NCBI GenBank assembly: GCA_963665115.1
Contig: OY762007.1
Coordinates: 1,184,001 to 1,248,000 of the forward strand
Source of the DNA: an uncultured Rivularia sp.
GTDB taxonomy: Bacteria > Cyanobacteriota > Cyanobacteriia > Cyanobacteriales > Nostocaceae
Direction: 5' to 3'
DNA: 64,000 nt
The notes under the pieces: generated by a model
Told to the model about the DNA's origin: nothing
The model's database searches: none
Seen by the model: only the letters and a program-made list of their open reading frames with translations
Part shown: positions 37,748 through 62,733 of the stretch, one piece after another
Numbering within the stretch: the stretch's first letter is position 1
Layout of the letters: each line of letters begins with the position of its first letter
Position numbers and translations under genes: made by a program

Positions 37748-37767
37748 ATGCTATTAATTACAATTAT

Positions 37768-38496: not shown

Positions 38497-38608
38497 AATA
38501 ATTACTGTTTACTATATAGCTTTCAAGAAATAGACAAGAAAAATATAGTACAGGTTACAAAAATTTATAAATCTTTAAGAATAGTTTTAATATTTAGGAT
38601 ATCTTAAA

Positions 38609-40481: not shown

Positions 40482-40501
40482 CTTGCCGATTAATCCCCGT
40501 A

Positions 40502-41230
40502 TTAATCAATTAAACCTTCTTCGCGGGCACGAATTTCGGTTTGGATTCGCAGATTCTTACCACTTTGCTTGCAGTCTTCAGGGTATACCTCTAAAACATC
40601 CTGAATCTTTGTCCAGTAAGTCCGTACTGCCCGTTCCGATTTATACATTCTTTTGGCAATTTCCTTATCAGTCAAACCTTCTTCAAAAGCGAATCGTAAA
40701 ACATCCACCCATTCCGGTTTTAATTCGATTCCCGTTTTAATATCTTTTGTATGAGTCGCACCGCCAAGCGTCAAATTAACTCGCATTAACATTTCATCTT
40801 CAGGTAATCCTTTGTCTGCGATGGCAAATCCACCTTGATGATTATCAATCTCGTGCTTAATGCGGATTAACGCTTTGACATAACTGGTTTGCACAATAAA
40901 ATTTTGATGGGGATATTCTGCAAGCAAAGTTTGTAAAAGTTGAATTCCCGTTTCAATTTCTGCTCTCTCGCCCAAAGTATTAGGAATCGACAAATCCATT
41001 ACAACTAAATCTAAATAAGAAGATTGAATTAAAGATAATGTCTCCTGTTTTGTTTGAGCCTTAACAATATCCGCTTCCGGATACTTTCGACGTAACACAT
41101 CCAGAGTACCAGTTAAAATTAATTGATGGTCGTCCACAACAAGAATGCCTAGTTTTTTTTCCACTGGCAAGCTCCCATAAACTTGGTGTTCTTTGAAATT
41201 ATAAATTACCATAACTTTATTCTCATTCAT
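40502..41230 (-). CDS. NarL/LuxR-type response regulator
   Basis: VVDDH, VMDL receiver; GLTDKEIAKRMYKSERAVR HTH. Confidence 0.88.
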   Translation of the reverse strand: MNENKVMVIYNFKEHQVYGSLPVEKKLGILVVDDHQLILTGTLDVLRRKYPEADIVKAQTKQETLSLIQSSYLDLVVMDLSIPNTLGERAEIETGIQLLQTLLAEYPHQNFIVQTSYVKALIRIKHEIDNHQGGFAIADKGLPEDEMLMRVNLTLGGATHTKDIKTGIELKPEWVDVLRFAFEEGLTDKEIAKRMYKSERAVRTYWTKIQDVLEVYPEDCKQSGKNLRIQTEIRAREEGLID

Positions 41231-41941: not shown

Positions 41942-42091
41942 TTATTGAGGTAAAGGATGGAAAAAAGTCCCGTATTGCAATCCAGGGAAAATGTAATTCA
42001 ATCCAACGAAAATTACAAACAGAATAATTACTGCTAAAGTCGCAACAACGGGAACGCTGGAAAGATATTTAAACAAATAACGTGATTCCAC
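41942..42091 (-). CDS. psaJ2: Photosystem I subunit IX, far-red paralog (not in the ORF track)
   Basis: AAGGAG RBS + GTG; MESRYLFKYLSSVPVVATLAVIILFVIFVGLNYIFPGLQYGTFFHPLPQ; downstream of psaF. Confidence 0.85.
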   Translation of the reverse strand: MESRYLFKYLSSVPVVATLAVIILFVIFVGLNYIFPGLQYGTFFHPLPQ

Positions 42092-42467
42092 GATCAAATT
42101 CTCCTTGTTAAATGATTGGTTTATTTACACCGTACTGTACTAGCGAATAGAAATCGGAATTTCATCATCTTTAGCAACTAATTCCCCACTTAATAATTCT
42201 TTGACAGCTAAAAGTGGCCACATTAAAGCCTTGAGCATACAACTGACGAAAAGTGCTACATCAATAAACAATTCCTTTTCTTCTCCTGCACCTTCTTTTC
42301 TAATTGCTATTAGATAAGAACGTCCGCTCCAACCTATCCAACCTGCAATATATAAGAACATCGTAATCGGAGCCATTACATCAAATGCAAGGTTCAAACG
42401 ATCGAGAACTAAATGTGGTAAACCATCCTCACCACAAAGTAACTGAGAATAAGCCTGAAATGGCTTA

Positions 42468-43639
42468 AGTAGGTCGGCATGAAAAAACCAAAGTATGTAA
42501 AGATAAGTAAATACGGAAAATGCATCTACCGAGGTTATTGAAATATGGGCGCTCGTTTAAGGGTGTTTCTGACTCGTGAGCAAGACAAAGACTTGCTAAA
42601 CCTAAGAACAAAAGACGTACCAAACAAAGTAAAAGACCGAGCAGAAGTAATTAGATTAAATGCACATGGTTGGTATGTTGAAAAAATAGCAGATCATTTC
42701 GGGTGGACTGCACAAACAGTAAGAGACATTTTACATAAATGGCAGAAAGAAGGATATAGCGGACTTTGGGATAAACCCGGCAGGGGAGGTAAGACGAAGT
42801 ATAAAGAAGAAGACATTATATATCTGGAAGAATGCCTCAAAAAAGAACCACGCACATACAATAGTCTTCAATTAGCCCAAAAATTAGAAGGCGATCGCCA
42901 GGTTAAGTTGAGTCCCGATAGATTAAGAAGGGTACTCAAAAAAAGGGGGTCATTTGGAAAAGAACAAGAAAAAGCCACAAAGAAAAGCAAGACCCAATCT
43001 TCAAAGAAATCAAGCAAGCAGACCTAGATATGTTAGAACTATCTGCGGCTGCTGGGGAAATAGATTTAAAGTATTTAGATGAATCTGGTTTCTGTATGTG
43101 GAGTGAACCAAACTACACATATTACCAGATCGGTGAACAGAAGCGCTTAGAGCAAACTAAGCGTCGTGGTCGTAGATTAAGTATTATAGGGCTTTTACAA
43201 CCCCTAGTTAGCTTTGTATATGGTTTAGTTATTGGTGGTGTTAATCGCTTTTCTTACATCCATATGATGGAACAAGAAGCGGCTGAGGCTCAAAGAAGCG
43301 GACGCATGAGAGTTATAGTACAGGACAACGGTCCAATACACCGATGCAAGGAAGTTCAGCAGTTATGGTCTAAGTGGGAAAGTCAAGGTTTGTATATCTT
43401 CTTTTTGCCTAAATATTGTTCTGAGATGAACCCAATTGAATTGGAATGGCAGCATCTCAAGAAAGATGAACTTTCTGGACAAATGTTTGATGACGAATTA
43501 GACCTTGCTTATGCCGTAATAGATGGAGTTCAAGTTAGAGGAGAAAGAGGTAACTACAAGACACAGCGTGTTAGATTTAACTCCAACACGACATCTTAAC
43601 TTTTCGTTACATAGTTATAAATTTCCCCGCCGACCTACT
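42468..43639 (+). mobile_element. IS630-family insertion sequence (1172 bp)
   Basis: TIR AGTAGGTCGGC / GCCGACCTACT; TA duplication at 42466-42467 and 43640-43641. Confidence 0.92.
42545..43599 (+). CDS. IS630 transposase, two ORFs joined by a probable programmed -1 frameshift
   Basis: HTH ORF, A7G5 slippery run at ~42938-42948, then [30 protein letters not shown] motifs. Confidence 0.88.
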
Positions 43640-43824
43640 TAGTAGTGTAATAACTATCAGGCGCATTTTGCATCCGTTCTATAAATGCCGGAGAATCTTT
43701 ACAAGGTACCAGTGTAGTGTTCTCTGCCAATGCAGTAGGAATAAAATTAATCCAGAAAAAGCTTGCAAGTAGTAGTGCGAAAAATATTCTTTTCATAGTT
43801 TTATCCTTTGTTATTAATTGTCAA

Positions 43825-44094
43825 TTTATTTTGGATTTTAGATTTTGCGGAAAGTTGGGGGTTTCGGTTTCCGGAGCCACTGCGTTGCGCGGGTTCCCAA
43901 GGCAGCGCGGTCTTGGGGGTTTCCCCCATGAGCGACTGCCGCCGCGTTGTAGCAAGTGGCGTTCCCCCAAACTTTCCAAGACAGATTTTGGATTGTCTCC
44001 AAGAATAAATTCCCAATTCCCAATTCCCCATTCCCCATTCCCAATTCCCAATTCCCTACTCCCTACTCCCTACTTTCTACTCCCTACTCCCTCT
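43825..44094. repeat. Nested short dispersed repeats plus heptamer STRR arrays
   Basis: GATTTTG/A, ATTCCCA and ACTCCCT tandem heptamers; GC-rich palindromic insert. Confidence 0.7.
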
Positions 44095-44097
44095 TAA

Positions 44098-45627
44098 TTA
44101 AACTGTCTGCTTTTTACGAGTACTCATGTCGCCCACTTTCTGGAACACACCAAACTCAACTTGTTCCTCTATATCAGCGTCAATTCCAGCAAAGACATCT
44201 CGGTATAAGGTGCGTGAACCATGCCAGATATGTCCGAAGAACCACAGCAAGCCCCAAACAGTATGAGCAAAAGCAAACCATCCACGGGTACTTGTACGAA
44301 ATATCCCATCGGAATTGAGAGTTTCACTATCAAATTCAAAAATTTCACCCAGTTGAGCGCGACGAGCAAATGGTTTTACATCAATTGGATCTGTAAAAGT
44401 TTGACCGTTAAGTTCGCCACCGTAGAAGCTAACAGTTGTACCAGTCTGCTCAAAGCTGAATTTGGATTCTGCTCGTCGGAAAGGTATATCTGCACGTACA
44501 ACATCATCTTTATCAGTCAACACTACAGGAAAGGTTTCAAAGAAGTTAGGCATCCGTCGTACCGTCAATTCTCTACCTTCTCCGTCTTTAAATACTGGAT
44601 GACCGGACCAACCTTGAGCAATACCATCTCCATTGTTCATTGCTCCTACTCGGAATAAACCACCCTTAGCTGGACTATTACCAACATAGTCGTAAAAAGC
44701 TAACTTATCTGGAATAGTTGACCAAGCTTGTGAAAGTGTTTTACCACTAGCCAAACTGGTTTGCACTTGTCGATTAATCGCATTTTGGAAATAACCGTTG
44801 TCCCATTGGTAACGAGTCGGGCCAAACAGTTCAATCGGAGTTGTGGCGCTACCGTACCACATTGTCCCAGAAACAATAAAAGCTGCAAAAAAGAATGTTG
44901 CTAAAGCGCTGCCAAGAACAGTTTCGATATTACCCATTCTTAAAGCCCTGTAGAGTACCTCCGGAGGACGAAAAGCTATATGGAAAATACCGCCGATAAT
45001 ACCAACAATCCCCGCAGCAATGTGGTGAGCTACAACACCACCAGGATTAAACGGATTAAAACCTTCGGCTCCCCATACAGGAGCCACACCCTGGACATGA
45101 CCAGTTAATCCGTAGGGATCAGAAACCCACATCCCCGGACCAAATACACCTGTTAAATGGAAAGCACCAAAACCAAAACAAAGAAGACCTGCACAGAACA
45201 AATGAATCCCGAATATTCTTGGTAAATCGAGAACTGGTTGATTATTTTTGCTATCTTGAAATAAATCCAAATCCCAATAAACCCAGTGCCAACAAGCTGC
45301 TAAAAATAACAAACCTGACAAAATAATATGAGCAGCCGCGACACTTTCAAAAGTCCACAAGCTAAAATCTGTTACAGGTGCGCCCGTAATACTCCAACCA
45401 CGCCAAGATTCCGTAACACCCAATCGAGCCATGAAAGGCAATACATACATACCCTGTCGCCACATCGGGTCGAAAACTGGGTCGCTAGGGTCAAACTTAG
45501 CTAATTCGTATAAAACCATTGACCCAGCCCAGCCAGCGGTAAGCGCCGTATGCATCAGGTGGACAGCAATAAGCCTTCCTGGGTCATTCAAAACAACTGT
45601 GTGGACGCGATACCAAGGTAGTCCCAT
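44098..45627 (-). CDS. psbB2: Photosystem II CP47, far-red paralog
   Basis: [18 protein letters not shown]; divergent CP47 in FaRLiP context. Confidence 0.93.
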
Positions 45628-45721
45628 AAAATCATGTTCCTTATCAAAAAGTTATGAATTGTAGAGACGTAGCATTGCTACGTCTTTATGGCAGTTATGA
45701 ATTTTTGAGTTTCCTCAATTT

Positions 45722-45901
45722 TTAGAAAAAAAGTTGCAAATATGTGCCTGATATAGAATCAGGAAAAAATCTTTTTAAAAACATCACGGTGACAGAGAAA
45801 AAGGCGATCGCAATATAGCCAATTACAGGAGCAATGATGTGTTCGAGTAAAAAATCCTGAATTCGTACAACCTGAAAATTTTTACGAAACGTAAGAAGCA
45901 T
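45722..45901 (-). CDS. Unannotated 59-aa single-TM protein, PsbF (cytochrome b559 beta)-like
   Basis: GAGGG RBS + ATG; MLLTFRKNFQVVRIQDFLLEHIIAPVIGYIAIAFFSVTVMFLKRFFPDSISGTYLQLFF; co-oriented within the psbC2-psbB2 operon. Confidence 0.6.
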   Translation of the reverse strand: MLLTFRKNFQVVRIQDFLLEHIIAPVIGYIAIAFFSVTVMFLKRFFPDSISGTYLQLFF

Positions 45902-45983
45902 AAACTAAAACCCTCGCAAAAGAGTAAGAATTTACCAGCTACCAGCAATGATTATTCACTGATAACTGATAATTGTTCACCGA

Positions 45984-47381
45984 TCAATCCAATGGTTTCA
46001 TCGATAACACTGGTTCATCTTCCCGTTCGATACCTCTTTCAAAACCCGCAGCAGCAGCTCTTGCGCGACCAGCGTGCCAAAGATGACCGACAAGAAACAG
46101 TAGTGAAAAAATAAAGTGAGCAGAAGCCAGCCAGGTACGAGGCCCAACAAAGTTGAAGGCATTAAGTTCAGTTGCTAGACCACCAACTGAATTTATAGAG
46201 CCGATGGGAGAATGAGTCATGTATTCGGCCGCCCGACGCTTTTGCCAAGGTTGAATATCATTCTTGAGCTTATCTATATCTAGTCCATTAGTTCCTCGTA
46301 ACGGTTCTAACCAAGGAGCTTTGACATCCCAAAAGCGCATTGTTTCAGCCCCAAAGATGATTTCTCCTGTTGGCGATCGCTGTAAATATTTACCTAAACC
46401 AGTCGGACCTTGGGATGTAGATATATTCGCTCCTAAAGCTTGGTCGCGCACTATAAAGTTGAATACTTGAGAATTGGCAGCCTCTGCAACTGTCGGGCCA
46501 TAAAACTCGCTCGGATAAGCAGTATTGTTAAACCAGATAAACATCGCAGCAATAAAAGCTTGTCCGGCTACATTACCCAAACTTTGAGAAAGATAGGCTT
46601 CACCAGACCAAATAAATACTCTATCGGTCCACTTAAAAGGTTTAGTGATAATGTGCCAAATACCACCAAGTATTAGTAAACCACCTACCCAAATATGACC
46701 GCCAACTAAATCCTCTAAGTTATCAACGCTAACAATATTACCAGCACCCCCCGTAAACGGACTAAATATGTAACCAAAAATTATTCTTGGGTCAAGAGTT
46801 GGGCTGGTAACAAGGCGCACATCACCGCCACCCGGTACCCAAGTATCATATAAACCACCCCAAAACATAGCTTTACCGACAAGTACGTAAGCCGCTAGAC
46901 CAAGGGCAATCAAATGATATCCCAGAATACTAGTAACTTTGTCCTTGTCGCTCCAATCAAAATTGAAGAAACCTGCTAGCTTTTCGGGACCTCTAATTGA
47001 GTGATAAATCCCACCAAAACCTAAAACAGCAGAGCCTATTAAATGCGTTACCGCAATAGCAAAAAATGGGAAAGTGTCTACAATTTCACCCCCATATCCT
47101 ACACCAATGCCGAGAGTGGCAATATGAGGCATTAAAATTAAGCCCTGCTCGTACATCGGCTTTTCTGGTATATAGTGAGCAACTTCAAACAACAGCATTG
47201 CTCCAGCCCAGAACGCAATTACTCCAGCATGAGCAACATGAGCGCCTAAAAAGCGACCGGATAAATTGATAAAACGGGCATTACCAGCCCACCATGCATA
47301 TCCAGTAGATGCCTCATCACGACCTTCTCTCTTTTCAGAGTTAACAGTCGTCGTGCTTGATTTTTCAAAAGGTGTTTCCAT
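45984..47381 (-). CDS. psbC2: Photosystem II CP43, far-red paralog
   Basis: [34 protein letters not shown]. Confidence 0.93.
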
Positions 47382-47498
47382 TATTTATTAATTGTTTTGT
47401 ATTGTTTATTTTTGGGGATTGGGGATTGGGCATAGGGCATAGGGCATAGGTAATTTTTAACAACTAACAACCAACAACTAACCACTAACCACTAACCC

Positions 47499-48557
47499 TT
47501 AAAGAGCATTCCCACGAGGTAATACTTCTGGGGGAAATTGGAAGTGTTGATGCGGCTGATCTTCCTGTGCCATCCAAGCTCTAGCTCCTTCATTCAGGAG
47601 AATATTCTTGGTGTAAAAAGTTTCAAATTCGGGGTCTTCGGCTGCTCGTAATTCTTGAGAAACAAAATCATATGCTCGCAAGTTAAAGGCTAAACCCGCC
47701 ATTCCAATTGCACTCATCCACAAGCCAGTTACTGGTACAAACAACATGAAAAAGTGCAACCACCGTTTGTTAGAAAAGGCTACCCCGAAAATCTGCGACC
47801 AAAAGCGATTCGCTGTCACAAAGGAATAGGTTTCTTCTGCTTGAGTTGCGCTAAATGCTCCAAAAGTATTGAAATTCTTACCATCTTTGAACAGAGTATT
47901 TTCTACAGTTGCACCGTGAATAGCACACAGTAAAGCACCACCCAATACACCAGCGACTCCCATCATATGGAAAGGATTGAGCGTATAGTTGTGGAAAGCT
48001 TGGAAGAATAGTAGAAAACGGAAAATAGCAGCTACTCCAAAGCTAGCAGCAAAAAACCAGCTTGATTGACCTAAAGGATAAATCAAGAATACAGAAACAA
48101 AAACAGCAATAGGCGCAGAAAAAGCAATAGCATTATACGGACGAAGACCTACAAGTCGAGCAACTTCAAGTTGCCGGAGCATGAAGCCTATTAATCCGAA
48201 AACACCATGAAAAGCCACAAAATTCCATAAACCTCCAATCTGAAACCAACGGATAAAGTCTCCCTGTGCTTCAGGTCCCCATAATAATAGTAAAGAGTGA
48301 CCCATACTATTGGCGGGAGTGGAAACAGCCGCTGTCAGGAAGTTACAGCCTTCAATGTAAGAACTGACCACACCGTGGGTATACCAAGAAGTTACAAAAG
48401 TTGTCCCAGTAAACCAACCTCCAATAGCCATATAGGCACAGGGGAACAGTAAAAGACCAGACCAACCGATAAAAACAAAGCGATCGCGCTTCAACCAGTC
48501 ATCAAGAACCGTAAACCATTCCCAGCCTGTCCGGCTGCGTTTGATTGCTATAGTCAT
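47499..48557 (-). CDS. psbD3: Photosystem II D2, far-red paralog
   Basis: [34 protein letters not shown]; divergent from standard D2. Confidence 0.93.
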
Positions 48558-48648
48558 AGTATTTTTCCTTTTTATTTGTTGGTAGTAAGGGCTTTAGCCC
48601 TCATAAGCAAGGACTAAAGTCCTTACTACGAACTTCAAGTAATAGATT

Positions 48649-49170
48649 TTACCAATCCGAATTCCCATCATTAATAAAGTAAGGAGTCCCCGGTAAAGCA
48701 AGAGCTTGAATGATTTGGTCAAAATAAGGAGTAACCAAAGCTGCATCCTGCGAGCCAAGAGTTACTTCAGCTTGTTCTTTGATGCAGTTTAATGCTTCTA
48801 CCCAATTTGCTAAGGGTATACCCAAAGATTGGTACATTTCTTTCATACCGACGATACCAATTTCTGTTAATGGCTGGTCGTTTCCTGCTAAAACACAGTA
48901 AGCAACTAACCGGATATACCAACCTTGGTCGCGCTGACATGAAGATGTCTTTCGCATATTCCCGCTATTGCTGGGGGTGTTAGGACACCGCTTCCAGAAT
49001 TTATCGCTGGAGATTTCGACTAACCGTCTTTCATTCTTCGCTAAAGTTGTAGCAACCCGAATCCGCTGCGTCCCCGTATGACAAAAGTTTTTAATCATCC
49101 GGATTTCTCCGGGGGTAGGATAACGCAGTTCTTCGTCGGCATTAAGAATCACTTGCTTGACTATACTCAT
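48649..49170 (-). CDS. apcD3: Far-red allophycocyanin alpha-type subunit
   Basis: FWKRCPNTPSNSG...CQRDQGWY; C-terminal extension; lies after apcE2. Confidence 0.85.
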   Translation of the reverse strand: MSIVKQVILNADEELRYPTPGEIRMIKNFCHTGTQRIRVATTLAKNERRLVEISSDKFWKRCPNTPSNSGNMRKTSSCQRDQGWYIRLVAYCVLAGNDQPLTEIGIVGMKEMYQSLGIPLANWVEALNCIKEQAEVTLGSQDAALVTPYFDQIIQALALPGTPYFINDGNSDW

Positions 49171-51476
49171 AATTCTCCTCTGTTTGAGTTTCAGTCACTG
49201 GTTCTTGTAACTGCGTCACTGTTTCTACAATTGGCTCTGCTGAATTTGAGTTGTTCAATTCATCTTCAGAGTTTTGCTGTTGTGTATGAGCAAGTTCTGA
49301 CCAGAAAAGCTGTTTTTGCACGTTGCGCTGTTTGGGAATAAACGCATCCAGTTCGGATGGTGATGAAATTGAGGATTTAGCTCTTAAATTTACACCTTCT
49401 ACCGATGCAGAACGGCGCATGGCGAAACCTCTGGGTGTAATATAACGCTCATAAGGAACCGTATTTTCTCCGAAAGCTTCTATGTATTCGGAACTATCAA
49501 TTATTTCGTCAATCAGAGCGTAAAATCCCTTAGTGGCGGAAATATCGTAGTAGCGATTCATTTCTTCCCGTCCATAAGTCGGACGACCTAACAAACGCCG
49601 ATGAATGTATTCAATGGCTTTAGTAATGTAGAGTTTTTCCCAATACATCCTGCGAAACCAATTAGATTTCCCTAATTGACGGATAAACTCCCGCATCGTA
49701 ATTTCGCCACCTTTGAGTTTGATTTCTGGGGTTGTTAAACGTTGACCTTGTAAAAGCTCGCGTCCAAATACCTGTCGATAAGCTCCGTTAATAACTGCTT
49801 CGGGAGAGTGTTTCGCTAAACTTATACTAAGTTCTTGTTGCTTTTTCCCATTCTTCTTTCCATTTGTGCTTTGACCATTTTGCACAGATGTATCAAATTT
49901 CTCTACATGGTCTAGCTTGATGACACCAACCGCAGAACCGCGAACTTGATAATCGCTAGCTTCAGCATGAATCAAAATCCGGCGAGTATCTTTGTTGAAA
50001 AATGCAGGTTCGGGATGAGGATTGCGGGTGTCTTGAGGAAAAACTGCACCAAACTGAATTTCTAATGGGGTCGTTTCCGCAACCGTAAGGATGTTGATTG
50101 GGTAGAGGTTTTTCATATTTACCAAACAGGGTTACAAACTGAGGAACTTTGCGAACGGGAGCGCTATATTTGAATAAATCAATTTGCGGACCCCAGTTGC
50201 GACATTCCTGAGCTTCTTGACCCAAACCGCGCAAATACGGTACTGTTTCCTCACCAAAGTAATCGGAGTATTCCTGAGAATCCACTAAAGTATCTACTAA
50301 TTTAGGTAAACCACCTTTAGTAATAACCGCAAAATATTCTTGGAACTCCGATAAAGAACTCAAACCGCGACCTAGAAAGTGACGCATCGCCAATTCTATA
50401 ACGCGAGCGATTGAATAAGGCTCATAAAAAAGCGTCAGGTAGAGCCGAGATTTACCCAACCTGCGGACAAACTCCTTCATCGAGATTTGTCCACCCTTGA
50501 GCTTCGATTCTATTTCAGTACCGGGAAAAGCATATATTGCAGTAATATCGCGTTCAAAAACTTGACGATAAGCAGCTTTAATTGCGTCTCGCTTTTCTGT
50601 TTCCGATAGCACCGACTTCATCATGAATTTTGGTCGATTTTCGGCCGCGATCGCATAACTCTGAGGTAGCACCAAACCCTGTTGCTCGTTGGAAACCCCA
50701 ATTCTCAGTCTGTCTGAGGGCTTTTCTTCTAAATACTCAGAAATCAATATATCAAAATAATACTTGACAATATTGCTTGCTTCAGTATTATCTTGCAAAA
50801 AGCTCGCCGATTGTCTTCGCATTTCTTTGAGCGCAACAACGGTAGCTTCCGTGACATCTTCTGGAATAACTCCGCGCAATCCTCGGACGTTAACTGTGAG
50901 AATACTAGCATCACCAGCAACAACTGCATAAGTAATATAGCGCAAGAACCAGGATAAGTCCCGCATAGACCTTTTCATTCTTTTTGGTCCGTAGCGAGAG
51001 ATATTGATGAAACGAAAACCTCCCGGAAGTGGATCTCTATCGCTATAAAGGGTTCGGATTTGTTGCCACCAAGCTTTAAAAGGAGCAGAAATCTTAGGAG
51101 CTTGTATTGATTCGAGACGCTCCTTAACAGCAACAACGCGATTTCTTCTTGCCGCAGTCAGATAATCTTCACCAACAAAATATCCCGAACCCGGTAATCC
51201 TAGCAGTTCTTTGGGCTTTTCCAGATAATCCATTGGCGAACCACCAACGAAAATACGGTTTGCTCCAGCAGAGACAATTTCCGAGGCCTTATTAGTTAAA
51301 GTTATTGCAATTTCTAACCGCAACTCACCAGAACTAAAAAACGATCCTAGTTGTTGAAGTTCAGTGTTTCTCAAATAACGGTCTTGTTGTTCCGTCTGAG
51401 AAATAACTGAGGTAGGTAAACTTTGATATTGTTGTGGACGGATAACTGGACTACCACCACTTACTTTTACACTCAT
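49142..51476 (-). CDS. apcE2: Far-red core-membrane linker (~777 aa, two REP domains), +1 frameshift at 50067-50070
   Basis: VIPEDV motif in place of the Cys-containing ENACS; two AYRQVF linker repeats. The corrected frame reads GNDPLEIQFGA. Confidence 0.9.
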
Positions 51477-51520
51477 ATATTTTATCCTTTGTTACTTATT
51501 CCTCAATGCCTAATGCCCAT

Positions 51521-52000
51521 TCAAGGCATTAATGATTGAATCAAATAATCAAAATAAGGTGCGACTTCAGTAGCATCTTTTGAGGAAAAAAGCTCTAAAG
51601 AAACTTCTTTGAGACAGCGAATAGCTTCCACTAAATTCGGTAGGGGAATTTCCAAAGATTCATACATCTCCTTCACCCCGACAGTGCCAATTTCTGCGAG
51701 AGGTTCTATATCTCCCACCACAAGGGAATAGGTAATTAGACGAACATACCAACCTTGGTCGCGCAAACATGAAGCCCGATAGGTTCTGTTACCACTATTA
51801 CTGGGTGTATCGGGACACCGTTCCCAAAACCTCAAACTAGCTTTTTGGACAATTTTTTGTTCGTTTTCCGCGAGAACTGTCGCCAGCGAGAGCCGAGAAA
51901 CTCCACCTTGATAAAAGTCCCCGATCGTAATTAATTCTCCCGCATTTAGATAACGGGCTTCTCTATCGGCTTGAGCAATTGTTTTTGTAATGATGCTCAT
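51521..52000 (-). CDS. apcD2: Far-red allophycocyanin alpha-type subunit
   Basis: FWERCPDTPSNSG, CLRDQGWY; position between apcB2 and apcE2. Confidence 0.85.
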   Translation of the reverse strand: MSIITKTIAQADREARYLNAGELITIGDFYQGGVSRLSLATVLAENEQKIVQKASLRFWERCPDTPSNSGNRTYRASCLRDQGWYVRLITYSLVVGDIEPLAEIGTVGVKEMYESLEIPLPNLVEAIRCLKEVSLELFSSKDATEVAPYFDYLIQSLMP

Positions 52001-52172
52001 AAAGATCCTGTTTTTGATTGTTAATTAGAACCTCTCTCTTGCAAGGAGAGAGGCTGTTATCTTACTCCTCTTCCCGATGCTCGGAAGGGGCTAGGGGTTA
52101 GCTCTGTATTGGTATTAACCGTGAACTATTAACTGTTACAAACCAATATTTATCAATGAATTAAAACACCTT

Positions 52173-52658
52173 TCAACTTAAACCAGCAGCAATGTGATCA
52201 AAGTAAACACCCATTTCCCTACCTGATTCGTTACCGAGCATACTAGTAACAACTTCCTTCATGGCTTGTACTGCTCGGATAGTTCCACCAATGGGAACTC
52301 CCAATGAATTATAAGTTTCTCTTAAACCATTCAAAATACGCTCATCTAAAATTGAAGCGTCACCAGCTAACATCGCATAAGTTGCATAGCGGAGAAAATA
52401 ATCCAAGTCGCGCACGCAAGCGGCATAGCGACGACAAGTATACATATTGCCACCAGGAGCGGTAATATCTGTGTAAAGTAAAGACTTGGCAACAGTTTGA
52501 GTGACGATATTTTTGGCATTAGCACTTACAGCAGTAGCAGCTTTTGCTCGCATATCGCCGCTATGAAAGTAAGTTTCTAATCTGTCTAAGAAAGTATTAT
52601 CTAGATATTTGCCTTGAACATCAGAGGAATTAATCAAGGCAGTAATTACATCTTGCAT
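52173..52658 (-). CDS. apcB2: Far-red allophycocyanin beta subunit
   Basis: [37 protein letters not shown]. Confidence 0.9.
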
Positions 52659-52866
52659 GATTCAAAGTTTCCTTAAGCTAAGTTTTTATTTTTTGAGTTA
52701 AAGATTAGAATTCATTCGATTTTGGATTTTGCGGAACATCCCCAAGCAGAGGAACTGGCGTTGGGGTGTAGATTCTCTTCCGCCAAAACTAAGCATCGAC
52801 AGATTTTAGATTTTGGATTGATATTGATGTATATTACAATCCTAAAAAACCTGAATCCCGCCATTG

Positions 52867-53343
52867 TTAAGAAAGTGCCTGAATGATGTAGTCGAAATAG
52901 GGCCCGACTTCAACTGCATCTTCTTCACTCATCATAGATACAGCTTCTTCTTTGACGCAGCGCATAGCTTCAACTAAGTTTCTCAATGGAATCTCTAAAT
53001 TGTTGTACATTTCTTTAATGCCAAGAGTGCCAATTTCTTCTAGAGGCTTTTCACTACCAGCCAAAATAGAATAAGCAATTAAGCGCACATACCAACCCTG
53101 ATCGCGTTGACAAGAAGCTGTCTTACGGTCAATACCGCTATTACTTGGGGTATTCGGACAGCGTTCCCAAAATCTCATGCTGCCATTTTGGACGATTTGT
53201 TGCTCATTTTCTGCCAATGTTTTGGCAATGCGAATTCTCTGATCTCCTGTTTTTAGAAAATCTTGAAATATTCTTAATTCTTTAGGAGCAGGATATCTAG
53301 CTTCACTATCAGCGCTAAGAATCAATTCTGTTACAACACTCAT
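52867..53343 (-). CDS. apcD5: Far-red allophycocyanin alpha-type subunit (ApcD5/ApcA2 position)
   Basis: ADSEARYPAPKE, FWERCPNTPSNSG, CQRDQGWY; first apc gene of the operon. Confidence 0.8.
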   Translation of the reverse strand: MSVVTELILSADSEARYPAPKELRIFQDFLKTGDQRIRIAKTLAENEQQIVQNGSMRFWERCPNTPSNSGIDRKTASCQRDQGWYVRLIAYSILAGSEKPLEEIGTLGIKEMYNNLEIPLRNLVEAMRCVKEEAVSMMSEEDAVEVGPYFDYIIQALS

Positions 53344-53435
53344 TTATTTCTCCTAGTTATTTGTCATCAACGCTCCACGAGGGAAAGTAATAATTGAAAC
53401 CCTCGCTACAAATGGAATAAACAAATTTTTGTCTT

Positions 53436-53495
53436 CCCCATTCCCCATTCCCAATTCCCAATTCCCAATTCCCAATTCCCAATTCCCCGTCCCCA
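53436..53495. repeat. STRR heptamer array (ATTCCCA/C)
   Basis: About 8 tandem heptamers; similar arrays at 33179-33215 and 47414-47497. Confidence 0.85.
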
Positions 53496-53553
53496 ATATT
53501 TATTAGGAGTCATTAGTCAGTAACCTCCGACTAATGACTTTAGGTAATCATCC

Positions 53554-54639
53554 TCAAGCAGCTAATGCTGGAGCTTTCAGCGAAATTACCGGAACCGATT
53601 CACCAGATGCAAGATCCAATGGAAAATTGTGAGCATTCCGTTCGTGCATGACTTCAAAACCAAGATTGGCTCGATTTAATACATCTGCCCAGCTAGGAAG
53701 TACCCGACCTTGAGAATCAAGGATGGAATTATTAAAGTTGAATCCGTTGAGGTTAAATGCCATCGTACTAATACCTATGGCCGTACCCCAAATACAAATT
53801 ACAGGCCAAGCTGCAAGGAAGAAATGTAACGAGCGACTATTATTAAAGCTGGCATACTGGAATATTAACCGACCAAAATAACCGTGCGCTGCAACTATGT
53901 TGTATGTCTCTTGTTCTTGCCCAAATTTATAGCCGTAATTCTGAGATTCAGATTCAGTTGTTTCCCGTACAAGACTCGACGTTACTAAAGAACCGTGCAT
54001 GGCACAGAATAAAGAACCTCCAAGGACTCCAGCCACCCCTATCATATGAAAGGGATTCATTAGGATGTTATGTTCGGCTTGGAACACAAACATAAAATTA
54101 AAGGTGCCGCTGATACCCATTGGTAAACCGTCAGAGAAGCTACCTTGTCCGATGGGGTAAATCAAGAATACAGATGTTGTCGCAGCCAGAGGAGCGCTGT
54201 AAGCAACTGCAATCCAAGGACGCATACCCAAACGGTAAGAAAGTTCCCATTCACGTCCCATGTAGCAACAAAGGGCTGGGATGTAGTGGAACGCAATCAT
54301 CTGGTAAGGTCCACCGTTATACAGCCACTCATCTATAGAAGCTGCTTCCCAAATGGGATAGAAGTGCAGCCCAATAGCATTGGAACTGGGGACGACGGCA
54401 GCAGAAATGATATTGTTGCCATAAAGTAATGAACCTGCTATCGGTTCGCGGATGCCGTCAATATCTACGGGTGGAGCCGCGATAAAGGCAATTATAAAGA
54501 CGCAGGTGGAGACTCCTAATAAAGGAATCATTAGAAAACCAAACCAGCCGATATACAGACGGTTTTCGGTACTAGTAATCCAATCGCAGAACCTATCCCA
54601 TAAGGGAAAGCGGGTAGGTTGTTGTGAAACTATAGTCAT
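53554..54639 (-). CDS. psbA3: Photosystem II D1, far-red form
   Basis: Mn-cluster ligands retained ([21 protein letters not shown]); far-red-type substitutions [21 protein letters not shown]. Confidence 0.92.
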
Positions 54640-54769
54640 AAGCTCGATAGTGCTATGAAGGTTAGTTACTAAAAGATGTGAAAAAAGTTAAATTGCCGTT
54701 TGCGGCTCTAGAATACCTGAAAACTGGCTTATTTCGCTCGACATTAACTGTTAGCTATGAGCTGCAACT

Positions 54770-54881
54770 ACTAGTACCGCTGCGCGGAAGTAAAAAGTCA
54801 AAAGTAAGAAGTAAAAAGTATTATATGATAAGGCTTTCAAACTTTTTAAATGGGTGCTTTATTTACGCCGTACTGTACTAG
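54770..54881. mobile_element. MITE-like element (CTAGTAC...GTACTAG ends) in the psbA3 upstream region
   Basis: Terminal inverted repeat with internal AAAAGT(C/A) heptamers; its right end recurs at ~42107-42143. Confidence 0.6.
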
Positions 54882-55017
54882 GTAGGTTTTTTTGTTAAAG
54901 AACCCCCTCATCGCTATCGCTGCTGTAAAAGCATATGCGATGAGGTGGTAACGGCGAGCTAACAAAGATGCAGTTCTCAGAGCTCTTAAGTCGATAAAAG
55001 TACAATAAAAAATAAAA

Positions 55018-55034
55018 ATGAAGAACTAATGAAG
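55018..55034 (-). promoter_or_regulatory. Candidate winged-helix regulator site: CTTCAT-N5-CTTCAT direct repeat
   Basis: ATGAAG at 55018 and 55029 (11-bp period) in the psbA3/rfpB divergent region. Confidence 0.4.
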
Positions 55035-55398
55035 TATCTTCTTATCTTTACAAAACTTAATAACTGTCTGAAGCACAGATGCGAGAATTTATTTATATTG
55101 AATTTAGAATAAATACTTACTAAATATAAATAAAAGTAAAGAAAATTATTTTTTATTGAAGCTAAGTAACTTTTAGGTAAGAAACTCGTTAATAATTATG
55201 TTGAATAAAAGTGTTTTTGCGGATATTTTTATTTCTAATCTATATAAAGAAATTAGATTTAGATATGGATGTTCGTGCTTGTCAACTGTTAGCATTTATA
55301 TAGAGCAAAAATAATAATTTGTGTGAAAAAAATAGTTCAATTTTTTAGTTAATTAATGTGAAAAAAACTTAGTTTCCAAGTTTAAGAGGTGATTTTAA

Positions 55399-56685
55399 AT
55401 GAGGATTTTAGTAGTTGAGGATGACAAGTGTATTACCAAAGCTTTGGAAAATATTCTTAGCAATCAACACTATGTCGTGGATATTGCCGAGAATGGTTTG
55501 CTTGGCTGGGAGTTTGTGGAGGCTTTCACCTATGACTTAATTTTGTTAGATGTAATTTTACCCGAACTTGATGGCATTGAATTTTGCCAGAAGTTACGAG
55601 AACATAACTATCAAATGCCCGTTTTATTATTAACAGCCCAAAACTCTAGCAATGATAAAGTGTTGGGATTAGATGCTGGAGCGGATGATTATGTTGTTAA
55701 ACCTTTTGAAGTCACTGAATTGTTAGCTCGAATTCGAGTTTTACTGCGTCGGAAAAATACACCAATACAAGCAGTTTTGCAATGGGAGAACCTGCGGCTG
55801 AATCCTGGTAGCACGGAAGTGACTTATAACAGTGATTTACTAAACCTGACTCCCAAGGAGTATCGTTTACTTGAACTTTTTCTTCGTAATAGCAATATTG
55901 TTTTTAGTAGAAGTGAGATTTTAGATCATTTGTGGTCTATGGAAGAAGCACCCAAAGAAGATACAGTTACAGCCCATATTAAAGGTTTACGGCACAAGCT
56001 GACGAGAGCGGGGGCACCGAGCGATTTAATTGAAACTGTTTATGGTTTGGGTTATCGTCTTAAAGAAATTGATCGCGCTAAAGTAAAATCCTCTGAGGAA
56101 AAACCTCGCAAGAAACTAAATAATAAACAAAGTAACAAACAGCAGCAGGCGAAGGAAGCATTGATTAAAACGTGGGAAAAGCTAAAAGCACTAAATATTG
56201 AACGCATCACTATTTTAGAGCAAGCTGTTAGCGCATTGTTAAAGAATAATAAAAGCGAAGAATTAATAGAAAAGGCGCAAAATGTAGCGCACCAATTTGC
56301 TGGAGGGTTAGGCATCTTTGGTTTTACTGAAGGTTCGCATCTAGCCAGAGAAATAGAGCAAATTTTTAAATCGAGAGTTAATTTAGACAGAACTCAAGGA
56401 CTTCATTTGAGAGAATTGGTAAAACTTTTACAGCGGGAAATACAACAGCCTGCGTTTAACAGCGATTGCAAACCCGTACAATGCGATAAATATTCTGTAA
56501 TGCTGGTAATTAATGATGATGTAAAACTAGCGAGGAACATAGTTAAATCTGCTATTGCATCGGGAATACATATAGAATCAGTACAAAATTTATTCGCAGC
56601 AAAAGAAGCATTAAACAAGCCTCAAGTTGATGCAGTATTGGTCAATCCTTCCCTTGATAAGACAACTGAAGAGGTTAAAGGTTAA
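55399..56685 (+). CDS. rfpB: FaRLiP response regulator REC-wHTH-Hpt-(truncated REC)
   Basis: MRILVVEDD, LTPKEY, TVYGLGYRL, Hpt AHQFAGGLG. The last REC breaks off at a heptamer array. Confidence 0.82.
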   Translation: MRILVVEDDKCITKALENILSNQHYVVDIAENGLLGWEFVEAFTYDLILLDVILPELDGIEFCQKLREHNYQMPVLLLTAQNSSNDKVLGLDAGADDYVVKPFEVTELLARIRVLLRRKNTPIQAVLQWENLRLNPGSTEVTYNSDLLNLTPKEYRLLELFLRNSNIVFSRSEILDHLWSMEEAPKEDTVTAHIKGLRHKLTRAGAPSDLIETVYGLGYRLKEIDRAKVKSSEEKPRKKLNNKQSNKQQQAKEALIKTWEKLKALNIERITILEQAVSALLKNNKSEELIEKAQNVAHQFAGGLGIFGFTEGSHLAREIEQIFKSRVNLDRTQGLHLRELVKLLQREIQQPAFNSDCKPVQCDKYSVMLVINDDVKLARNIVKSAIASGIHIESVQNLFAAKEALNKPQVDAVLVNPSLDKTTEEVKG

Positions 56686-56741
56686 AGGTCAAAGGTTAAA
56701 GGTCAAAGGTTAAAGGTCAAAGGTTAAAGGTCAAAGGTTAA
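56672..56741. repeat. Heptamer array AGGT(T/C)AA, ~10 copies
   Basis: Direct reading; supplies the rfpB stop codon. Confidence 0.9.
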
Positions 56742-56796
56742 TAAGGCTTGTTTTTAATCTAAAACAAAAATATCCGTTGTTAAAACCCAAAATAGA

Positions 56797-59362
56797 ATGA
56801 CTCAGTTTAATAACCCACATCCGCAAATATCAAATAATTCCTCTATCAATGATGAAAAGCCAATTGCTTCTGTGGAGGTACTTTTACACCGGATGATGAA
56901 TCGGATTCGGCAATCCCTGGAATTACCTGCAATTCTCACCGGAAACTGTGGCAGAAGTCCGTACTTTCTTGGAGACAGACAGAGTTAAGGTTTATCGTTT
57001 TGATGCAGATGGCAGTGGAGAAGTGGTTGCTGAATCTGTTGTCAAAGAGCGCTTACCATCTCTTTTAGGACAACATTTTCCCGCAGAAGATATTCCACCC
57101 GAAGCACGCGAATTATTTATCAAAGCACGTCAGCGTTCAATTGTGAATTTAGCTACACAACAAATTGGCGTGAGTCCTTTGGATTGTCCGGAAACTGGAG
57201 AGTCTTTAGCACAAGATGATATTCGGTTTCGTCCTGTAGATGAATGTCATATCGAATATCTCACCTCAATGGGGGTACAGTCGTCATTAGTGGTGCCGAT
57301 TTTACATCACGACCAACTATGGGGATTATTGGTATCTCATCACAGTTTGCCACGTCAGGTAACAGAGCGAGAATTGCAGATTGTTCAGCTAGTTGCAGAC
57401 CAATTATCAATTGCGATCGCACAAAGTACTTTACTCGAACAAACCCGTGCCCGAGCAGCACAGGAAACTACAATTAATCGAGTCGCCAAGCTGTTGCATT
57501 CGATGACGGAGATGCAGTTACAGCAAGCATTGGAATTAACTGTATCTGGATTGCAAGGGGCGGGTGGTAGAGTTTACATTTTTCCGCAAAATCTCCAAGA
57601 GGAAGCACAATTGTTTGTTTCTGGAGAGTGGGTTAATAAAGATGAAGAAAAATTTGAGGAACATCCGACTTGGCAAGAGTGGTTGGGAAAGCAAGCAACT
57701 GTTGGGAATGGAATTAAAGCTTGGATAATTCCAGATTTGCATCAAGTTGCGCTGCCAGAATATTTAGAATCGGTTTTTTCAAACAGTAATATTCGCAGCT
57801 TGCTAGTTATCGAACTAAAATCTCGTCAGCAGAGCTTAGGTTATTTGAGTATATTTCGTCATGAAATTGAAATTGAAACTTTGTGGGCAAGAAGAGCCGA
57901 TCGCAATGATTCGCGACAACAGCGTCCAATAATATCTTTTGAAACATGGCGAGAATTAAAGCAAGGTCAAGTACAATCATGGATTGAGGCAGAAATTGAA
58001 CTTGCTTTGGCTTTAGGAAGTCACTTTGCCACAGCAATTCATCAATATGAACTGTATCAGCAAGTATACGCTCTCAATATTGACTTAGAACAAGATATCG
58101 AAGAGCGTAAGCAAGCAGAATTCAAAATATCTGCCTTAAATGCCCAATTAGAACAGCGAGTGCAGGAACGAACAGTAGAATTACGACGAGAAATTAACGA
58201 ACGCGAGCAAGCAAAAGCCTCACTCGAACGCCTTAGTCGGCAAAGCGGGTTAATCTTGAACTCCGCAGGAGAGGGAATTTGTGGTTTAAATGCTCAAGGT
58301 AAACTCACTTTTATCAACCCAGCAGCAGCGAGAATGTTGGGATATCGAGTAGAAGAATTGATTGTTTCAATCGCTAATAAGGATTCAGATTCGTACCCAA
58401 AATACATTCTCTCTGAATTTCCGCATCAGTCTGGAGAAAGATTTATGCACGTTATATTAAACCACTCCCAACCAGACGGAAGTCCTTACCCTTGGGAAGA
58501 AAATCCTATTTATGCCACCTTAAAAACTGGAGCAGTGCAACATATTACTGACGATATATTTTACCGTCGAAATAAAACAAAATTTCCTGTAGAGTATGTT
58601 AGTACACCAATTTTAGAAAAGAGTAAGATTGTAGGTGCTGTTGTCATTTTCAAGGATATTACCGAACGACAAATAATAGAGCGAATGAAAAATGAGTTTG
58701 TCTCAGTTGTCAGTCACGAACTGCGGACACCTTTAACTTCAATTCGCAGTGCTTTAGGTTTACTTTCAAAGGGTTCGTTGAATAATCAACCCGCTAAAAG
58801 TCAGCGGATGATGGAAATTGCCTTTGATAATACCAACCGCTTGGTGCGTTTAATTAATGACATTCTTGATATTGAACGCATCAATTCCGGCAAAGTGACG
58901 ATGGAAAAACAACATTGCAATGCTGGACAATTGACGATCCAAGCAGTAGATGAAATGCGAGCAATGGCTGAGAAAGCAGAAATTAAACTTGCTTTGAAAC
59001 CTGTTGAAATCCAATTATGGGCAGATCCAGATAGAATCGTTCAAACATTAACCAATTTACTCAGTAATGCAATTAAATTTTCGCCAGCAAATAGTACAGT
59101 TTCCCTTAGTGGAAAGCTGCAAGATTCTCAAATATTATTTCAAGTAAAAGATCGAGGTAGAGGAATTCCTGAAGATAAACTAGAAACCATTTTTGACCGC
59201 TTTCAACAAGTTGATGCTTCTAATTCTCGAAATCAAGGAGGTACGGGTTTAGGGTTAGCAATTTGTCGCAGCATTGTACAACAGCATGGTGGTAATATTT
59301 GGGTTGAAAGTACTTTGGATCGTGGTAGTACTTTTTACTTTACGTTACCTATTAGTAATTAG
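56797..59362 (+). CDS. rfpA: Knotless phytochrome histidine kinase GAF-PHY-PAS-HisKA-HATPase (~854 aa), +1 frameshift at 56939-56942
   Basis: EDIP motif, bilin Cys in VDECHIEYL, PIISFETW tongue, SHELRTPL, GGTGLGL. Confidence 0.88.
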
Positions 59363-59386
59363 CGATTATTTATTAGAAAAAAACAA

Positions 59387-59759
59387 ATGAGCAAACGCAT
59401 TTTAATAATTGATGACGATAAAGATATCCGAGAAGCCACTCAAATGTGTCTAGAAATTTTAGGCTCATGGGAAGTATTGAGTGCTGGTTTCAGGTAAAGA
59501 AGGTTTAGTTACAGCAGCAGCCGAGGTACCCGATGCTATTCTTTTAGATGTAATGATGCCTGAGATGGACGGTTTGACAACTTTTGAGAAGCTACAAGAG
59601 AATCCTGTTACTAAAAATATTCCTGTGATTTTACTAACAGCAAAAGCTCAACCTGCCGAAAAGCGTCATTTTACTCAACTTCGTGTAGCGGGGGTAATTA
59701 CTAAGCCTTACGATCCGTTTACTTTGGCTGATGAAATTACACAGGTTTTGAAGCGATAG
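59387..59759 (+). CDS. rfpC: CheY-like response regulator (~123 aa), +1 frameshift at 59488-59490
   Basis: MSKRILIIDDD...SAGSGKEG (after correction)...LLDVMMPEMDG...LTAK...KP. Confidence 0.85.
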
Positions 59760-59857
59760 TTTTAGCCCGTTAATACTTGTTGTATCGTTTATGTAGAGTA
59801 AGCGATCGCGGTAATAGGAACTAAATGGTACTAATAGCCCGAAAGCATTCGTGACAA

Positions 59858-60901
59858 TTACAAGACAAACTCTTCCGTAACCACAGCATCTTGATAAATG
59901 GCTTCCACTTTAAACTGTTTACCAGCAGCTTCGCTAAATGCTAACTGAATAATTTGGTCGGATTCTCTAGCAATCGCCGATTCACTTTCTGGTTCATCAG
60001 TATTATAATTCAGCGTTACTTTCAGTTGCAAACCTTGTGGTAAACAATATTCATTTTGAGAACGAATTTGTGCAAGTACACCTATCTCTTGATTTTCTTC
60101 AAGTCTCATATTAATTGTTAATGCAAAGCGCTGATTATTTAGTAATAATCCAAAGTCAAATAATTTACCCCTTCTAACTGCAAAATCAGATGACTGAGTA
60201 TTTCTTCTGGTTGCACTTGCATAACTAAGATTAGGCATTTGTGGTGTTAAAATATTTTCAATAGATTGCCAACTTTCTTCAAATAATCCACTCCACCATT
60301 GAGAAAGATTAACAAGGGATTGAGTAACTTTGTGAGGAATATTTTCTGCTGATTTAGGTAAAGGAATAGCTTCTATTTCCAGAAAGCGAATATATAAGAA
60401 TAAATTGTTCACTTCACTATCAAAGCTAGAAAGCGGAATTTTACAAATCTCAGAGTTTTGACTTGGAGATAATTCATCATGTCGTATTATTCCATGAATT
60501 GTTAACTGTTCGGCTTCTTCTAAAATTTCAACTAATACATAGAAGTGAGCAGCAAGTTGTGGTGATATGATATTTTCTTGATGAATAGAAACTAAATTGT
60601 CATAAAGACTATCTACAGTAATTAGTTGAACCTTAAATTCACCAACTTGTAAATTAACGTTCTTCTGTTGAGAATCTGCATCGAGTTGCTTAACTTCGAT
60701 ATCTGGGATTTGTTCTTGTAACCATTCTTCAAAACCGAATAAAGCTAGTTGATTTAAATAAACTCTCCATTGATTTTTCTCACCATCAATATTTTGACTA
60801 ATATTGATAGCTTTCTCATAATGTTCTGGTTCTAAACAAGCAATCCTTGGTTTAATTCGTTGGCTAAAATCTTGTTCTGCTTGTAAGGATAATCTAGTCA
60901 T
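59858..60901 (-). CDS. DUF1822 family protein
   Basis: AAHFYVLVE, NLSQWWSGLFEESW, RGKLFDFG, LPQGLQL motifs; homologous to 23137-24384. Confidence 0.82.
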   Translation of the reverse strand: MTRLSLQAEQDFSQRIKPRIACLEPEHYEKAINISQNIDGEKNQWRVYLNQLALFGFEEWLQEQIPDIEVKQLDADSQQKNVNLQVGEFKVQLITVDSLYDNLVSIHQENIISPQLAAHFYVLVEILEEAEQLTIHGIIRHDELSPSQNSEICKIPLSSFDSEVNNLFLYIRFLEIEAIPLPKSAENIPHKVTQSLVNLSQWWSGLFEESWQSIENILTPQMPNLSYASATRRNTQSSDFAVRRGKLFDFGLLLNNQRFALTINMRLEENQEIGVLAQIRSQNEYCLPQGLQLKVTLNYNTDEPESESAIARESDQIIQLAFSEAAGKQFKVEAIYQDAVVTEEFVL

Positions 60902-60924
60902 GGTGTTTTTATATATGATTATTT

Positions 60925-62496: not shown

Positions 62497-62733
62497 AATC
62501 TGTCATGCTTTGTCCAGTCGAGCTTACATCTATATATAGATTGGGGATTTTTTACCTATACATTTTTCTTGGAATCTCCTTGTCATCTATCTAATGGTTG
62601 ATTATTTAACAAAAACTTTCACATAACATTAGGTAACATTTTTTACACAAAAAGTAATATTTTTATGGCACATCAAATAACATCATATAGTCAATAAGGA
62701 TACACAGGATATTACAACCATAAGGAACTGATA

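Follow-up and report, generated by a model that had tools for sequence, protein, structure and literature searches.

The far-red light photoacclimation (FaRLiP) gene cluster of an uncultured Rivularia sp. is gene-complete and is divided into two blocks by a 14.3-kb insertion that follows rfpC. The stretch analysed here (the window, 64,000 nucleotides, G000:C1:1184001-1248000) comes from a genome assembled as a single contig of 8.69 Mb (G000) and contains the proximal block of the cluster together with the beginning of the insertion. An initial annotation of the window had read it as a reduced cluster of photosystem II (PSII) and antenna genes, lacking chlF and psaA2/B2/L2/I2. Searching the whole genome for the missing genes refuted this reading: all five lie at G000:C1:1258741-1265914, the first of them, found with PsbA3 as query (59% match), 10,741 bp beyond the end of the window. 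The reduced reading had arisen because the window edge cut off the distal block. It is probable that a complete Rivularia-type cluster, cut by the insertion, still induces chlorophyll f synthesis and the far-red photosystems.

The 19 core FaRLiP genes (rfpABC, chlF, psbA3/B2/C2/D3, apcB2/D2/D3/D5/E2, psaA2/B2/L2/I2/F2/J2) are all present (19/19), psaF2 being counted though interrupted, and rfpD is present in addition. The content first described for the window was confirmed: rfpBAC on the plus strand, psbA3, five apc genes, psbD3/C2/B2 and psaF2/J2 on the minus strand, and unrelated genes on both flanks. The initial annotation had offered a split cluster as one option, to be called complete if the missing genes stood elsewhere under Rfp control. 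This option holds, since the genes were found elsewhere in the genome with a FaRLiP promoter motif, which Rfp presumably binds. Not every core gene is intact: psaF2 holds an insertion sequence (IS) of the IS630 family, and psaA2 is intact in read contigs of sequencing runs X1 and X4 but not of X3. The annotation had remarked neither the IS630 element nor a small open reading frame (ORF), ORF59, nor the apparent frameshifts in apcE2, rfpA and rfpC, nor the end of rfpB at 428 amino acids (aa).

Proximal block and start of the insertion (window positions):
41942..42091, minus strand: psaJ2, 49 aa, far-red type with FPGLQYGTFF (PF01701, E 7e-9)
42140..42467, minus strand: 3' part of psaF2, beyond the IS (PF02507, E 2e-25)
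42468..43639, plus strand: IS630-family element, 1,172 bp (read-contig junctions, repeats)
43640..43796, minus strand: 5' part of psaF2 (sequence comparison with congener G041)
43797..44097, no strand: psbB2-psaF2 spacer, 301 bp, heptamer arrays at 44008-44092, psbH2 absent
44098..45627, minus strand: psbB2 (CP47) with L107/F268/T447, best PDB hit 9t5u_B
45722..45901, minus strand: ORF59, conserved gene for a PsaJ2-like small predicted membrane protein (homology profiles)
45984..47381, minus strand: psbC2 (CP43)
47499..48557, minus strand: psbD3 (D2)
48649..49170, minus strand: apcD3, named by position
49142..51476, minus strand: apcE2 with VIPEDV motif, 777 aa in read contigs
51521..52000, minus strand: apcD2, named by position
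52173..52658, minus strand: apcB2
52867..53343, minus strand: apcD5, named by position
53554..54639, minus strand: psbA3 (far-red D1), six manganese-site ligands all checked, far-red residues present
55019..55053, minus strand: conserved FaRLiP promoter motif upstream of psbA3
55399..56685, plus strand: rfpB, short form, 428 aa, with receiver, winged helix and Hpt, C-terminal receivers lost
56672..56741, no strand: heptamer array AGGTTAA/AGGTCAA x10 at the rfpB deletion point
56797..59362, plus strand: rfpA, knotless phytochrome kinase, GAF-PHY-PAS-HK, 854 aa corrected
59387..59759, plus strand: rfpC, receiver, 123 aa corrected
59760..64000, no strand: first 4.2 kb of the 14.3-kb non-photosynthetic insert, with DUF1822, CHAT-nSTAND1-WD40 and AAA_35 genes

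Distal block (positions on G000:C1):
1258065-1258451: rfpD
1258741-1259832: chlF (L001:15741-16832)
1260033-1262404: psaA2
1262626-1264848: psaB2, best PDB hits 6PNJ and 9EYS
1265141-1265653: psaL2
about 1265717-1265914: psaI2, assigned by position and congener homologues, without a match in the Pfam scan

RfpA shows the order GAF-PHY-PAS-HK and keeps the chromophore-binding Cys-His pair, RfpB carries a winged helix, and RfpC is a receiver. VIPEDV in ApcE2 stands where the chromophore Cys motif would be. No convincing coding sequence was found in the 759-bp gap between psbA3 and rfpB, in agreement with the ~760 bp first described as empty. The closest titled records for ApcD2 come from Rivularia, Richelia, Plectonema and Calothrix parasitica genomes (86-88%), which places G000 among heterocystous cyanobacteria of Rivularia type. 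Row L017, with a stop inside its coordinates, was left out of the ApcD2 alignment.

Two blocks separated by an insertion

The insert between rfpC and rfpD measures 14,305 bp and carries DUF1822, CHAT-nSTAND1-WD40 and AAA_35 genes. Its G+C fraction is 0.35, compared with 0.41-0.42 for both FaRLiP blocks. Beyond it, rfpD, chlF, psaA2, psaB2, psaL2 and psaI2 follow in sequence. We compared the assembly with read contigs from sequencing runs X1, X2, X3, X4 and X5; X4 is a sister strain, about 1-2% different from G000. The left insert junction is crossed by X1 and X2 contigs and the right junction by X1 and X3 contigs. Since read contigs bridge both junctions, the split is no misassembly. The distal genes are covered by X1 and X3 contigs with zero substitutions in the pieces listed. 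In the sister strain, the DNA after rfpC runs into other sequence.

Among the nine congener clusters read, the distance from rfpC to chlF is at most 1.5 kb in six and about 1.9 kb extra is present in one; of the remaining two, one is without chlF and one lies on a contig that ends early. A synteny comparison with relatives, as proposed at the outset, thus found six congener clusters that share the gene order but have no large insert. (G-numbers denote genomes and L-numbers loci, L001 being the locus numbering over the rfpC-to-chlF side of G000; locus L070 is outside the set examined. Counts from genomes and from titled loci overlap and were never summed.)

Within the insert, the ORFs for CHAT-nSTAND1 and WD40 at L001:3734-9803 look like one split gene, and two AAA_35 pieces (L001:13260-14616) join to 451 aa in the X1 version. 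The left flank of the cluster (window 35831-41230) holds a module of CHAT, DUF928, CHASE2 and a LuxR-type regulator and resembles the right-hand insert in kind.

Comparison with known clusters

Split clusters are already known from the literature, and this cluster is of a known kind. Large insertions and splits are mostly located downstream of rfp, and neither psbH2 nor rfpD is obligatory (10.1101/2024.05.15.594131); split clusters are also described in PMC9386421. With Group I (Nostocales) clusters (10.1101/2024.05.15.594131) the G000 cluster shares the 19 core genes, psaF2/J2 at the end opposite the other photosystem I (PSI) genes, the psbA3-apc-psbD/C/B order, the optional rfpD, a T-rich motif before chlF and psbA3, and a split downstream of rfp. 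It differs in that chlF follows rfpC/rfpD and precedes psaA2, whereas in Fischerella and Chlorogloeopsis chlF adjoins psbA3; the G000 position of chlF is common to congeners and Mastigocoleus. The 14.3-kb insert and the IS630 element in psaF2 are further differences. The same FaRLiP layout, with the same offsets, was seen on two contigs (L054, L055) in Mastigocoleus testarum BC008.

Calothrix NIES-3974 (PMC13396731, PDB 9T5U; split in PMC9386421) is similar in lacking psbH2, in PsbB2 residues L107/F268/T447, in its short RfpB, in PSI genes away from the main block and in an ORF59 homologue before psbB2. There, however, chlF stays beside psbA3 and only psaA2/B2/L2/I2 have moved, whereas in G000 chlF and rfpD moved along with the PSI genes and the blocks are 14 kb apart. 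Calothrix parasitica NIES-267 (L053) has the same gene order, proteins 83-96% identical and an RfpB of 423 aa, but is contiguous from rfpC to chlF and has an uninterrupted psaF2; a chlorophyll f measurement for this strain was not found in the accessible text of PMC7608106. Chroococcidiopsis CCMEE 010 (PMC9386421, PMC11424453), likewise without psbH2, is a true example of the reduced kind: it lacks psaA2/B2/L2/I2 and keeps chlF, while the G000 genome has all of these genes.

Apparent frameshifts in the assembly

Compared with congeners, G000 shows single extra bases in apcE2 (50067), rfpA (56943) and rfpC (59488) and two extra bases in psaA2 (around G000:C1:1261872). The extra bases in apcE2, rfpA and rfpC are omitted at full depth in X1, X2 and X4, and in X3 likewise for rfpC; the two in psaA2 are omitted at full depth by X1 and X4. 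The read versions encode ApcE2 of 777, RfpA of 854, RfpC of 123 and PsaA2 of 789 aa, equal to congener G041 where compared. The frameshifts in apcE2, rfpA and rfpC are therefore assembly errors, and pseudogenisation of these genes was rejected, the extra bases being absent from the reads.

The psaA2 frameshift is probably also an assembly error. A comparable +2 change in a GGCCC context strikes chlH and mlaE in the same assembly, and psaA1 and psaB1 are broken in it as well. Over a 202-kb sample, 27 of 186 coding-sequence pairs with G003 contained 33 frame changes, some of which may be genuine differences or errors in G003; they fall mostly in short homopolymers near GG/CC motifs and affect chlH, polA and infB. 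Four frameshifts in the cluster compare with 3.5 expected from this background (P 0.45). With roughly one indel error, near GG/CC motifs, for every 6-10 kb of coding sequence, the assembly is noisy enough that pseudogene calls in G000 need read checks.

Ratios of nonsynonymous to synonymous substitution rates (dN/dS) against G041 are 0.04-0.19 over 11 core genes or gene parts, similar to other pairs, which shows the core genes to be, by this measure, under purifying selection. For psbB2, 15 of the 17 differences listed between G000 and the sister strain are synonymous. Frameshifts in psaA2, rfpC and psbC2 were also seen in congener G020 (G020:C196; L009, L010).

An IS630 element interrupts psaF2

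The sole firm lesion of the cluster is the IS630 element in psaF2. It has 11-bp perfect terminal inverted repeats and a TA duplication, and its junctions are spanned by X1 and X2 contigs. Its ORFs (42545-43027 and 43030-43599) are joined by a -1 frame open across an A-run, and programmed frameshifting is likely. The genome holds one identical copy and two more at 77-79%. Joined without the element, the psaF2 parts encode 160 aa, as in G041. The sister strain X4 apparently lacks it, one contig depth running over both flanks and dropping inside the element. The G000 isolate is thus a natural psaF2 insertion mutant, and its near-identical sister without the element offers a ready comparison for the roles of PsaF2 and PsaJ2.

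PsaF2 and PsaJ2 shape chlorophyll f site B30 (PMC10694217) and are peripheral and loosely held, with about 30% occupancy in one structure (PMC8689207). For these reasons the insertion likely trims far-red PSI without abolishing it. Far-red PSI would form without PsaF2 and might take up PsaF1; PsaJ2 might be lost through polarity of the element, and the peripheral chlorophyll f at B30 would likely be lost or shifted.

Activity or recent decay

Several observations weigh against a complete and still active cluster. X3 keeps the 2-base insertion in psaA2, and X5 is not among the runs listed as omitting it. A 1.5-kb segment with WD40 repeats in mid-insert (L001 6746-8236) has depth, and no piece spanning it is among the contigs listed. 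The psaF2 lesion hints at relaxed selection in the G000 isolate. ChlF belongs to a distinct Rivularia-type subclade that keeps D1-type H252, E189, E333, H337 and D342, and a measurement of chlorophyll f for a ChlF of this type was not found in the literature.

These points could be accommodated if a gene-complete cluster had recently been switched off in the G000 isolate and decay had begun, with the IS in psaF2, the large insert and possibly a real psaA2 frameshift as its marks. The bridged IS630 junctions and the X3 version of psaA2 agree with this, and dN/dS against distant congeners is blind to very recent relaxation. Moreover, FaRLiP loss is common in the genus, since apcE2 was found in only 7/24 congeners and, in congener G010, chlF and the 5' portion of psaA2 are gone. 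We nevertheless regard recent decay as unlikely: at full depth, the psaA2 insertion is missing from X1 and X4, the number of frameshifts is that of the background, promoter motifs are intact, and the interrupted gene concerns peripheral subunits of low occupancy. With regard to X3, we infer that it shares a platform error at psaA2. The decaying cluster that the initial annotation had put forward as a further option is accordingly mostly unsupported by dN/dS, reads and background rate, the IS630 element alone speaking for it. Finally, a reduced far-red cluster of PSII and antenna genes only, suggested by gene absence within the window and by the functional CCMEE 010 cluster without psaA2/B2/L2/I2 (which kept chlF), is so improbable as to be set aside, the five genes standing 10.7 kb away and being covered by read contigs.

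In G010 (99% complete; G010:C61 about 17,830-19,400; L015/L016), the sequence after the chlF promoter motif jumps into psaA2 at ~codon 403, and a full chlF was not found in the genome; either the cluster truly lacks chlF, its other genes being open, or the contig is misassembled. The genus shows repeated FaRLiP splitting and loss.

Regulation of the two blocks

An alignment of upstream regions from five congeneric genomes identified an element before chlF and psbA3, TTGTAAA-N10-14-CTTCAT..GTTCTTCA. Scanning 8.7 Mb gave two matches to the long motif and three to the short motif, and the sites lie only before chlF, psbA3 and rfpD. The motif, derived from congener alignments, was set against the published class of T-rich FaRLiP promoter motifs (10.1101/2024.05.15.594131) by description, not by the published logo. 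Its presence before chlF and rfpD means that the distal block owns a far-red promoter element. We infer that RfpB binds it.

RfpB ends at 428 aa inside the heptamer array, whereas most congeners have 618-622 aa. The stop is supported by X1, X2 and X4 read contigs. A lesion was rejected as explanation: G041 shares the deletion in an otherwise intact cluster, dN/dS of the receiver and DNA-binding domains is 0.04-0.05, and RfpB is 361-395 aa long in F. thermalis PCC 7521, C. fritschii PCC 6912 and Calothrix NIES-3974. Judged from these sequences, the short RfpB is a normal heterocystous form. Loss of C-terminal receivers in heterocystous sections is described in PMC4390838. Most Rivularia-type genomes, and Mastigocoleus too, still have the long form of 618-622 aa (loci L045-L055), so heterocystous lineages lost the receivers more than once, contrary to the single loss proposed in that source.

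By analogy with characterised FaRLiP strains, the far-red signal would pass through RfpA and RfpC to the short RfpB; RfpB would then bind the motif and activate the proximal and distal blocks independently. The distance between the blocks would then not matter, because each is activated on its own.

ChlF and far-red PSII

ChlF has 7/8 of the ChlF-specific residues listed in PMC10535343 (L117, Q127 and D128 (QD), S144, L145, F147, S285), H252 being kept. Its manganese site is eroded (D170E, H332N, A344S). A quick tree of 69 sequences split all 22 QD-bearing proteins from 47 other D1 proteins (99 SH-aLRT), whereas a smaller tree left the position of ChlF unresolved; a PDB search returned D1 chains alone, with zero ChlF-specific matches. 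The Rivularia-type ChlF groups with Calothrix PCC 7716 and has a D1-like C-terminus, FPLDL. It may be early-branching or partly gene-converted.

As first reported, psbH2 is absent: PF00737 and a Fischerella PsbH2 query each returned one psbH genome-wide, outside the cluster, and the psbB2-psaF2 spacer, described as ~300 bp of repeats and found to be 301 bp and repeat-rich, holds no psbH2. This absence, however, is lineage-wide and published for Calothrix NIES-3974. There the L107/F268/T447 type of PsbB2 is tied to chlorophyll f loss at B608 and B617 and to use of white-light PsbH (PMC13396731). Among 21 titled loci covering psbB2, kin that are not independent, F268/T447 occur in 14/14 without psbH2 and W268/N447 in 7/7 with it. 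Far-red PSII of G000 would thus use white-light PsbH and, as in Calothrix NIES-3974, bind only two chlorophyll f and one chlorophyll d; a single PSII emission close to 740 nm would be expected.

ORF59, a conserved gene before psbB2

ORF59 (59 codons, 45722-45901) lies between psbC2 and psbB2 and is conserved in congeners; homologues often start about 13 codons further downstream and are carried as hypothetical in databases. It was found in this interval in 20/21 titled loci covering it (two are copies from one organism, and the profile was built from six congeneric rows), L066 being without it. In a draw of 401 genomes from the order, 14 including G000 match the profile. Of the 13 non-self matches, one of which is also a profile row, 12 stand directly before psbB2 and one beside psaF2 in a reduced cluster (G363). 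ApcE2-type proteins, distinguished from ApcE1 by the gap in scores, the length of the open frame and the surrounding locus, occur in 13 genomes of this draw, and these are the same 12 plus G000. A second draw of 401 genomes, from the class, gave nine matches outside the order; all are PsaJ2 itself, so ORF59 orthologues were not found outside the order in it.

Profiles built without PsaJ2 rows aligned the ORF59 family to PsaJ2 (hhalign 78%, E 1.8e-5), and the top PDB hits are far-red PsaJ2 chains (7S3D_J, 6PNJ_J and 9EYS_J; E 5e-6, 9e-5 and 2e-3), which supports homology. Matches from an alignment that itself included PsaJ2 were discounted as homology evidence. Both proteins have a core of about 46 residues, one hydrophobic stretch and then FP-x4-GT[YF]. 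ORF59 differs from PsaJ2 in having about 24% identity in the profile alignment, Ser for the chlorophyll f-binding Tyr, and a place before psbB2, additional to an intact psaJ2. Against Pfam PF01701 it scores 20.8 bits (E 5.5e-4), below the gathering cut-off of 22.4, and 6/14 family members match at E<=1. An assignment as PsbF2 found no support in Pfam or PDB.

It is slightly more likely than not that ORF59 is an overlooked twentieth FaRLiP gene: a diverged psaJ2 duplicate, translated into a far-red accessory membrane subunit or assembly factor and missed by annotation and transcriptome tables. Its place immediately ahead of psbB2 would then have been retained in clusters of heterocystous, Chroococcidiopsis-like and Pleurocapsa-like type, those of the model strains F. 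thermalis PCC 7521 and C. fritschii among them. It is predicted to be co-transcribed, its product being a putative PsaJ2-derived single-helix accessory protein. We slightly prefer a role in PSI, because of the homology to PsaJ2 and the retention with psaF2/J2, although the fixed place before psbB2 and the lost B30 Tyr speak against it.

Quite possibly, ORF59 instead has no place in PSI and either serves PSII, as an accessory helix or in the assembly of CP47 (PsbB2), or is an untranslated relic of a duplicated psaJ2. In favour of this, 12 of the 13 non-self genomes keep it directly before psbB2 even where psbC2/psbD3 are rearranged, the Tyr that binds chlorophyll f B30 is missing, the PDB search found PsaJ chains only and no ORF59-family chain, and the Pfam score is under the PsaJ cut-off. 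A remnant is disfavoured because lineages spanning the breadth of three orders conserve the open frame, a C-terminal FP-S--GTYL motif and the position of the stop, with dN/dS of 0.15-0.33. The G363 cluster, where ORF59 is kept beside psaF2-psaJ2 with the flanking PSII genes gone, leans towards PSI. This locus (G363:C27:51000-61000, L071) holds rfpA, rfpB, chlF, an apcD5 fragment, the ORF59 homologue, psaF2 and psaJ2; the PSII and other apc genes are gone from it, and the genome has no ApcE2-type match.

ORF59 is possibly new: a description was not found in the FaRLiP literature, as covered outside subscription journals, figures and preprint supplements. A 'conserved hypothetical protein' drawn in Figure 1 of PMC4390838 may or may not be ORF59. 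The accessible tables for C. fritschii PCC 9212 (PMC6424891, PMC4658448) give no protein gene between psbC2 and psbB2; the tag in this place, UYEDRAFT_01170, is an IsrR match, and these tables therefore give the ORF59 homologue no expression value. A conserved small gene would thus seem to have been overlooked in one of the best-studied photosynthesis clusters. Should it prove to be translated, the list of parts used in engineering far-red photosynthesis would change; genetically tractable strains make its role easy to test.

The only match of an Rfam scan was likewise IsrR (window 46769-46955, antisense to psbC2, 141 bits), which probably stems from the sequence likeness of psbC and isiA.

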